Positions 4,288 through 4,578 of a stretch of DNA of 18,664 nucleotides are shown here, one piece after another. The stretch lies in assembly GCF_003334255.1 (NCBI RefSeq), contig NZ_QOWU01000073.1. One strand, given 5' to 3'. The first letter of the stretch is position 1; the number at the start of each line of letters is the position of its first letter. The DNA is from Escherichia coli. GTDB lineage: Bacteria > Pseudomonadota > Gammaproteobacteria > Enterobacterales > Enterobacteriaceae. Under the pieces are notes generated by a model. That model had not been told where the DNA came from, ran no database searches, and saw only the letters and a program-made list of their open reading frames with translations. The position numbers were made by a program, and so were the translations under genes.

Positions 4288-4578
4288 CCCGACCCGGGGG
4301 GGGGGATCATCCGGCGTAAAAAACGATCGCTTTGGACACCGCGCCCCCTCTCACGCAGAGAAAAAATTCCCGTTTCAGGGCAGTTAACATGTTAACTGGC
4401 TGCCCGGGCATTTTTGCGGTTTTTATCTTTATTATTCAGTTTGTTGTGCGGAAAAAATGTTAACTGGCTTTTTCAGCAAATGTTAACCAGGCAGCAGTTA
4501 ACATTTGCGGCATGAGACGCCGGGAAAAATGGGCTGAACCATACCCGGCTGAGTGCGTTCTGGACCCGGGAGGAGGCT
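4288..4578. promoter_or_regulatory. Putative cos / terminase-recognition region between HNH and terminase small subunit
   Basis: 291-bp noncoding gap with a G10 run (4296-4305), GTTAAC-centred palindromes and repeats (4381-4508) and AT-rich tracts. Position matches where HNH-associated cos phages carry cos. Confidence 0.45.
4381..4508. repeat. GTTAAC-containing palindromes and direct repeats (candidate TerS binding sites)
   Basis: Perfect 18-bp palindrome CAGTTAACATGTTAACTG at 4381-4398. AATGTTAAC recurs at 4456-4464 and 4479-4487. 12-bp inverted arms GCAAATGTTAAC (4476-4487) and GTTAACATTTGC (4497-4508). Confidence 0.6.

Follow-up and report, generated by a model that had tools for sequence, protein, structure and literature searches.

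A G-Rich Box at a Nearly Constant Distance from the Predicted Cut in HK97-Type cos Regions and Its Possible Part in Phage DNA Packaging

Introduction

A run of ten consecutive G residues occupies positions 4296-4305 of the Escherichia coli DNA analyzed here (the window, a stretch of 18,664 nt considered at its full length), in the gap between an HNH endonuclease gene and the genes for the two terminase subunits. It could belong to the site at which packaged phage DNA is cut, it could serve a neighboring gene, or it could be an accident of slippage, sequencing, or assembly. HK97 is now the structural model for cos packaging. The locus raises two questions: whether the run is a conserved part of an HK97-type cos region and, if so, what might read it.

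Loci Compared

Conservation was surveyed in 80 IMG/VR loci recovered through alignment of their TerL proteins to that of the window (58-100% identity). At least 900 nt upstream of terL was available for 61 of these loci, and 48 of the 61 gave a unique match to an anchor, the left-end motif at +1..+22 from the cut, which was defined independently of G content. These 48 loci collapsed to 30 non-redundant clusters sharing no more than 75% identity over -80..+30. A second sample was built on the TerL of HK97 and consists of IMG/VR loci at 43-100% identity to it. Tract length was counted in 80 homologous loci, made up of IMG/VR loci and phage records with the window included. Negative positions are counted upstream from the top-strand cut.

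The G10 Tract and the Genes around It

On the plus strand the tract reads as GGGGGGGGGG (4296-4305), and its first G is the ninth base past the HNH stop codon. The order is GGACTGTAA (stop codon TAA, 4285-4287), CCCGACCC (4288-4295), the tract, and then ATCATCCGGCG, which begins ATCATCC; the sequence thus agrees with a preliminary description that had placed the G10 just past the HNH stop. The features on which the argument draws are as follows.

3922..4287, plus strand: HNH endonuclease gene of the packaging-associated type that adjoins terminase genes (phrog_589, E=1.6e-44)
4296..4305, plus strand: G10, probably the window's version of a conserved G-rich cos box, at -54..-45 from the predicted top-strand cut
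4306..4333, plus strand: spacer consisting of ATCATCCGGCGT, A6 (4318-4323), the palindrome CGATCG (4324-4329), and CTTT; the box-to-cut length is constrained
4334..4349, plus strand: conserved cut-proximal block GGACACCGCGCCCCCT, containing the predicted 10-nt 3′ cohesive end CGCGCCCCCT (4340-4349)
4350..4371, plus strand: conserved left-end block CTCACGCAGAGAAAAAATTCCC, +1..+22, which is identical to the record start of phage Lys8385Vzw and is supported by the consensus of relatives
4381..4506, no strand assigned: ATGTTAAC repeated five times, with two copies paired in the palindrome CAGTTAACATGTTAACTG (0.28 copies expected from shuffles)
4579..5142, plus strand: terS, small terminase subunit gene (phrog_641, E=1.8e-68)
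5139..6800, plus strand: terL, HK97-type large terminase subunit gene (phrog_9, E=8e-146)

The gap between the HNH gene and terS is the usual place of cos in HK97-like phages, and the tract lies inside it. Given the order of HNH (phrog_589), terS, and terL around this gap, the earlier designation of a putative cos region is correct. The terS homologue in the Stx1 phage Lys8385Vzw is annotated 45 nt earlier, from a CTG equivalent to window position 4534. Beyond terL lie a capsid-protease fusion gene and then a portal gene. The former is a 645-aa ORF (6864-8801) that matches both a major head protein (phrog_617) and a head maturation protease (phrog_80); its place between terL and the portal gene is unusual compared with HK97, where the order is terL, portal, protease, capsid. 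The portal-like protein is represented by two overlapping ORFs (9013-10377 and 10374-11435), both of which match phrog_2271, a profile of 859 positions, at positions 1-451 and 562-859, respectively. The gene may be naturally split or frameshifted, or the profile may itself contain a fused-annotation artifact.

The tract had also been described as unusual, which holds in part. No other homopolymer of eight or more bases occurs in the 18,664 bases of the window, but the rarity is mild: the expectation for independent bases is 0.14, and a G10 or C10 run appeared in 24 of 200 dinucleotide-preserving shuffles (12%). The significance of the tract therefore comes from its position and conservation and not from its rarity inside the window. 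That it is real, and not a sequencing or assembly artifact at a physical genome end as had been suggested, follows from other genomes and from the contig itself. A 191-nt cos core (4230-4420) is present in 1274 of 5426 complete E. coli genomes (23%), at 2913 places, and in eight of the complete E. coli records the match to the window across this core is 100%, G10 included. In addition, the window DNA runs unbroken through cos, with no contig end at the G10.

Location of the Predicted Cut

The ends of Lys8385Vzw (MT225100) were assigned by PhageTerm, with a 3′ cos overhang CGCCCCCCCT (PMC7946995). The GenBank record of this phage is opened at the mapped end; it finishes GACCCGCCCC-G7-ATCATCCGGCGAAAAAAACGATCGCTCCGGACACCGCCCCCCCT and starts CTCACGCAGAGAAAAAATTCCCGTTTCAGGGCAGTTAACATGTTAACTGG. 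Its right end, G7-ATCATCCGGCG...GGACACCGCCCCCCCT, and its left end, CTCACGCAGAGAAAAAATTCCC, both match window 4296-4371. By homology, the overhang of the window is CGCGCCCCCT (4340-4349), a 10-nt 3′ end that differs by one base from CGCCCCCCCT, and the nicks are predicted at 4349/4350 on the top strand and 4339/4340 on the bottom strand. The virion ends of the window's phage are accordingly predicted at these two positions. The record ends of two other phages fit this placement, each phage resembling the window on one side of the cut. The record of Pseudomonas phage D3 ends with GGACACCGCGCCCCCA, which is nearly identical to window 4334-4349; its right end and box are like those of the window, whereas its TerS (phrog_83) and left end differ. 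The record of Xp10 starts with CCCATTCGCAGAAAAATTACCC, which resembles window 4350-4371, and ends with CCGGACAGTCT; here it is the left end that matches window +1..+22, and the box is interrupted, unlike that of the window. The overhangs of D3 and Xp10 are reportedly 9 nt long.

With the overhang homologue at 4340-4349, the G10 falls at -54..-45, within the duplex of the right end, and is therefore distinct from the cohesive end. The tract ends (4305) 34 nt before the start of the overhang and 44 nt upstream of the predicted top-strand nick, about four helical turns away. The earlier suggestion that the tract is part of the cohesive-end site thus stands insofar as it lies inside cos, and fails for the cohesive end itself; the partial twofold symmetry proposed along with it was not seen in any form involving the G10 or the nick sites. 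The tract is indeed GC-rich and situated in the HNH-terS gap, and G:C homopolymers are abundant in the true overhang too, yet it is hardly credible that the tract is itself part of the single-stranded end or a nick site, as the mapped end of Lys8385Vzw lies 44 nt past the end of its tract, and the tract is internal to the right-end duplex in all checked records opened at the physical end (Lys8385Vzw, HK97, HK75, D3, and Xp10).

The C run within the overhang varies among relatives, which carry CGCGCCCCCT, CGCCCCCCCT, CGCCCCCCGT, or CGCCCCCGT. The sequence of the cohesive end, and possibly its length, therefore differs between otherwise near-identical prophages.

A G-Rich Box Kept at a Fixed Place

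Alignment on the left-end anchor showed that a G-rich stretch recurs at the place of the G10 throughout the window's TerL clade. Among the 30 clusters, the frequency of G was 0.57-1.00 at each position from -52 to -42 (1.00 at -46 and 0.97 at -47), compared with a background of about 0.1-0.4 upstream of -53. The box is followed by T or C at -41 and -40 and by AAA at -38..-36, and closer to the cut A-12, C-11, and C-10 were invariant in the 30 representatives. When the anchor was loosened, the 3′ end of the box lay 39-46 nt from the cut in 53 of 54 loci and 50 nt from it in the remaining one. Windows of 12 nt with at least eight G make up 0.42% of all such windows in the surveyed loci; inside -57..-40 they were found in 41 of the 48 loci and in 27 of 31 representatives including the window (nominal binomial P 2e-37, a value that overstates independence and is inflated because the loci share ancestry). 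Even where the flanking sequences have diverged beyond recognition, a G-rich box persists at this distance from the cut.

Outside this clade, similar boxes were found in the following phages.

HK97: G9-ATCAAATC, ending 42 nt before the right physical end
HK75: G13, ending 42 nt before the cut, with cos annotated on the last 10 nt
SfV: GGGGAGGGGCGGG-TCAAATC, ending 41 nt before the end of the overhang
D3: GGGGTGGGGCGGG-TCAAAAC, an interrupted box ending 40 nt before the record end
Xp10: GGGTGGGGGTAGG, an interrupted box ending 41 nt before the end
Cronobacter ENT39118: G6AGGG, a related tract at the same place
Klebsiella ST13-OXA48phi12.4: G6AGGGGCGGG, a related tract at the same place
Serratia OS31: G6AGGGG, a related tract at the same place

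The SfV record (NC_003444) is not opened at the physical end; its 10-nt cos, TGCCCGCCCC, is at record positions 8-17 and was located from a study of SfI (PMC3636060).

The HK97/HK022-type cos is similar to that of the window in several respects. The gene order is HNH, cos, terS, terL, and TerL belongs to phrog_9; in both, a G-run followed by ATCA is found some 42-44 nt before the top-strand cut, with an ACCGC..CC motif at the cut itself. The HK97/HK022 overhang is a 10-nt 3′ end, and 3′ cohesive ends were also assigned by PhageTerm in the window's relative Lys8385Vzw. The proteins are nevertheless far apart. The TerL of the window is only 23% identical to HK97 gp2 over 489 aligned positions, BLASTP returned no significant match between the window's HNH protein and HK97 gp74, and the TerS proteins fall into different families (phrog_641 in the window, phrog_5601 in HK97), with unrelated left-end sequences. 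Conversely, Lys8385Vzw, BP-4795, phi330, and other Stx1a/Stx2c prophages have the same cos as the window, at 94-99% nucleotide identity over 3900-4700, and this region is also 94-99% identical in phage 2851.

The sample built on the HK97 TerL shows the box as well, for example as GGGGGAGGGGCGGG-TAAAAAGTTC, and even in genomes of 40-45% GC no other 12-mer of the locus is as rich in G. A clear box (at least nine G in 12) at the expected distance from terL was found in only 18 of the 42 clusters of this sample, so the G-box is widespread, not universal. Staphylococcus aureus phi12 (NC_004616), whose TerL is also of phrog_9, has the same layout with the strand composition reversed: in its HNH-terS gap (20494-20548), CCCCCTACCC-ATCGGCTTAAAATG...ACCGGCGGGGGCCCT supplies a box rich in C, and the block next to the cut is rich in G. 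Cos phages of PHROG 9 thus do not all carry a G-box as such. In the phi12 genome (33% GC), three of the four G5 or C5 runs lie within 20494-20582.

A Possible Counterpart to Lambda cosQ

The G10 is probably the local form of a G-box conserved in HK97-type cos regions, a reading that joins this identity to a role of the box as a recognition or structural signal for the packaging machine. Our best inference for that role is an upstream recognition or termination subsite, one that would be functionally like cosQ of lambda. In lambda, cosQ is an upstream subsite needed to recognize and nick the downstream cos at termination (PMC4669245; PMC7617512), and its conservation extends across phages that differ in cosB specificity (PMC4669245). 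The G-box resembles it: both are short, lie upstream of the nicks on the side packaged last, and are conserved independently of TerS specificity. There are also differences. The function of cosQ is known genetically, whereas the G-box is likened to it by position and conservation; cosQ has 7 bp and no apparent natural variation (PMC4669245), whereas the G-box is a homopolymer of variable length. The lambda terminase belongs to a different class from that of the window, with 5′ overhangs and no HNH protein, so sequence similarity between the G-box and cosQ is not expected.

How such a subsite might work can be sketched. The box lies on the genome end that is packaged last, and the packaging machine (TerL, alone or together with HNH, or else the portal) would read it as the downstream cos arrives, whether by TerL in transit or by the portal at the stall. 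It would then help to halt translocation or to place the nicks, as cosQ does. At about four turns, box and nick would share one face of the helix, and consecutive G:C pairs could plausibly act as a shape signal. A homopolymer could serve here because only about seven or more G with a fixed 3′ boundary seem to matter, a rule that would explain the tolerance of slippage-type length changes (7-13 G in phage genome records). A more ambitious version is offered as a tentative possibility: that the G-box is a subsite of HK97-type cos across Proteobacteria, a rigid, A-philic G:C shape signal sensed by the TerL motor or the portal, which slows or registers the DNA for the correct cut by terminase or HNH, and that slippage, by continually altering the length of the homopolymer, tunes or degrades the efficiency of termination.

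The current model of HK97 termination attributes stalling to TerS binding at +15..+29, without recourse to an upstream element (PMC11331095). The HK97 cos fragments used in vitro (-312..+472 and -80..+150) include the box (PMC11331095; PMC10359639). If the role proposed here is true, a second strictly spaced element shared across clades would mean that the one-signal model (TerS at +15..+29) is incomplete, and 3′-cos phages would gain a counterpart to lambda cosQ. A literature search returned no account of a role for the G-box or of experiments on it, although an older description may exist, and 2024 review and model papers on HK97 and cos packaging do not mention it (PMC11331095; PMC7617512). 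Thus, cos was already mapped in one relative of the window's phage, while the conserved G-box subsite is undescribed as far as we could find.

The box might instead act after packaging, its DNA being the last-packaged and first-ejected end that is read by the portal or neck, so as to hold or place that end, or is needed at ejection or circularization. In the HK97 termination assembly, the cleaved DNA end is at the TerL-portal interface (PMC10359639), so that at cutting positions -42..-54 would be deep in or beyond the portal channel and not in TerL, a point that weighs against the packaging role as well. In favor of a later role, the box is 40-55 bp from the right end, a stretch that at cleavage is in the portal channel or slightly beyond it, and the title of a work in the reference list of PMC7617512 has portal mutations in lambda suppressing cosQ defects. 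Sequence-specific contacts between portal and DNA are, however, not established for HK97-type phages, and this alternative is given a small though appreciable chance beside the cosQ-like reading.

Independence from TerS and Left-End Sequences

TerS proteins recognize cos, and early mapping in HK97 placed the relevant sequences only within -80..+472 (PMC11331095), an interval that would admit a second, upstream TerS binding site of cosB type at the box. The minimal TerS site of HK97 has since been narrowed to +15..+29 (PMC11331095), on the other side of the cut, and the same box occurs with three unrelated TerS families, listed here with the phages that carry them.

phrog_641: window, BR52a, E264, and Xp10
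phrog_5601: HK97
phrog_83: D3 and SfV

By comparison, the left-end sequence differs between these groups and tracks the TerS family, so that it changes with TerS where the box does not. A second TerS site at the box is for these reasons unlikely. TerL, on the other hand, is of phrog_9 in all box-bearing groups despite the three TerS families. It is the left-end block (4350-4371) that likely constitutes the recognition side for TerS or terminase.

Further TerS sites may lie beyond it. The five copies of ATGTTAAC are all between the predicted cut and terS, and they are candidates for additional, cosB-like TerS sites specific to this phage group. Unlike HK97, the window has 185-230 nt between cut and terS, which hold these repeats. 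In E264 and BR52a, two more distant relatives, terS begins about 30-40 nt past the inferred cut, without the repeat segment of 150-190 nt.

Variation in Tract Length

In the 80 homologous loci the tract had between 6 and 13 G: G6 in 1, G7 in 28, G8 in 23, G9 in 17, G10 in 8, G11 in 2, and G13 in 1. Deposited phage genomes cover 7-13 G, with G7 in Lys8385Vzw, G9 in BP-4795 and HK97, G10 in phi330 as in the window, and G13 in HK75. The exact flanking haplotype of the window occurs with G8, G9, and G10, which bears out the early impression of a slippage-prone tract; some of the variation may be homopolymer miscalling in draft assemblies. Of the two observations that had been named in advance as speaking against a cohesive-end role, ends lying elsewhere and an invariant tract length, the first is found by homology and the second is not. 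Despite the changes in length, the distance from the 3′ end of the tract to the cut stays at 42-45 nt within the window's family. The A tract of the cos core (4318-4323 in the window) also varies, from A6 to A8 among relatives. A correlation between G-tract and A-tract lengths, as expected if one compensated the other in spacing, was weak (r = -0.41) and largely reflected haplotype structure.

A tract that varies in this way, even within otherwise identical flanks and perhaps in part through miscalls, and that arises by chance in 12% of window shuffles, could be a sequencing or assembly artifact or a neutral, slippage-prone homopolymer without function. We consider this very unlikely. The eight identical complete records and the 1274 genomes that carry the region speak against an error, and at least seven G were present in 79 of the 80 loci, the other having six. 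Against neutrality, the box keeps its distance from the cut in diverged lineages and in genomes of 40-45% GC.

Relation to the HNH Gene and Local Structure

Homopolymer tracts are classic contingency loci, and this one begins 9 nt past the HNH stop. It could therefore be pictured as an expression signal linked to the HNH gene, such as one that terminates or attenuates transcription or switches expression by phase variation, or as the homing target of the HNH enzyme. The tract has the length polymorphism of a contingency locus but not the location, in frame or in a promoter spacer. It lies outside any supported ORF and at least 229 nt upstream of terS, and this intergenic position excludes a phase-variation switch that acts through coding sequence or promoter spacing. 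A search of 3600-4700 gave no terminator-like site and, at or near the tract, no promoter-like site, and RNAalifold predicted no pairs, and hence no conserved hairpin, on 31 representatives.

Linkage to HNH was assessed across the clade. Of 61 loci, 60 have an HNH homologue upstream of cos and on the same strand; it comes in three subtypes, and its gene ends anywhere between 61 and 781 nt from the cut, whereas the spacing from box to cut stays at 39-46 nt. These figures rule out that the box is tied to the HNH gene or to any one subtype, and an HNH-linked expression signal is correspondingly a far-fetched explanation. Since the spacing is kept while TerS and HNH vary, the box belongs to the cut site and the TerL type.

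Two structural ideas were also tried and rejected. Pairing of the G-box with the C-rich overhang in a hairpin or cruciform was no better than chance, the longest inverted match being 5.33 against 5.22 with shuffled cosN. The box of SfV does contain GGGGCGGG, a perfect 8-nt inverted copy of CCCGCCCC in the overhang, but the pattern is not general. A G-quadruplex is likewise rejected, as the tract is a single unbroken run with no further same-strand G-runs of three or more nearby.

Stx-Type Prophages

The box and the ACCGC..CC motif together would give a simple prediction of the exact ends of Stx-type prophages, which are very common. The length of the homopolymer in assemblies of such prophages is either unreliable or truly variable. 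A single E. coli genome can hold the cos core at as many as 7 places, and 6 of all the places found are on plasmids. With several copies of the core in one genome, co-resident prophages share packaging specificity, which could allow cross-packaging.
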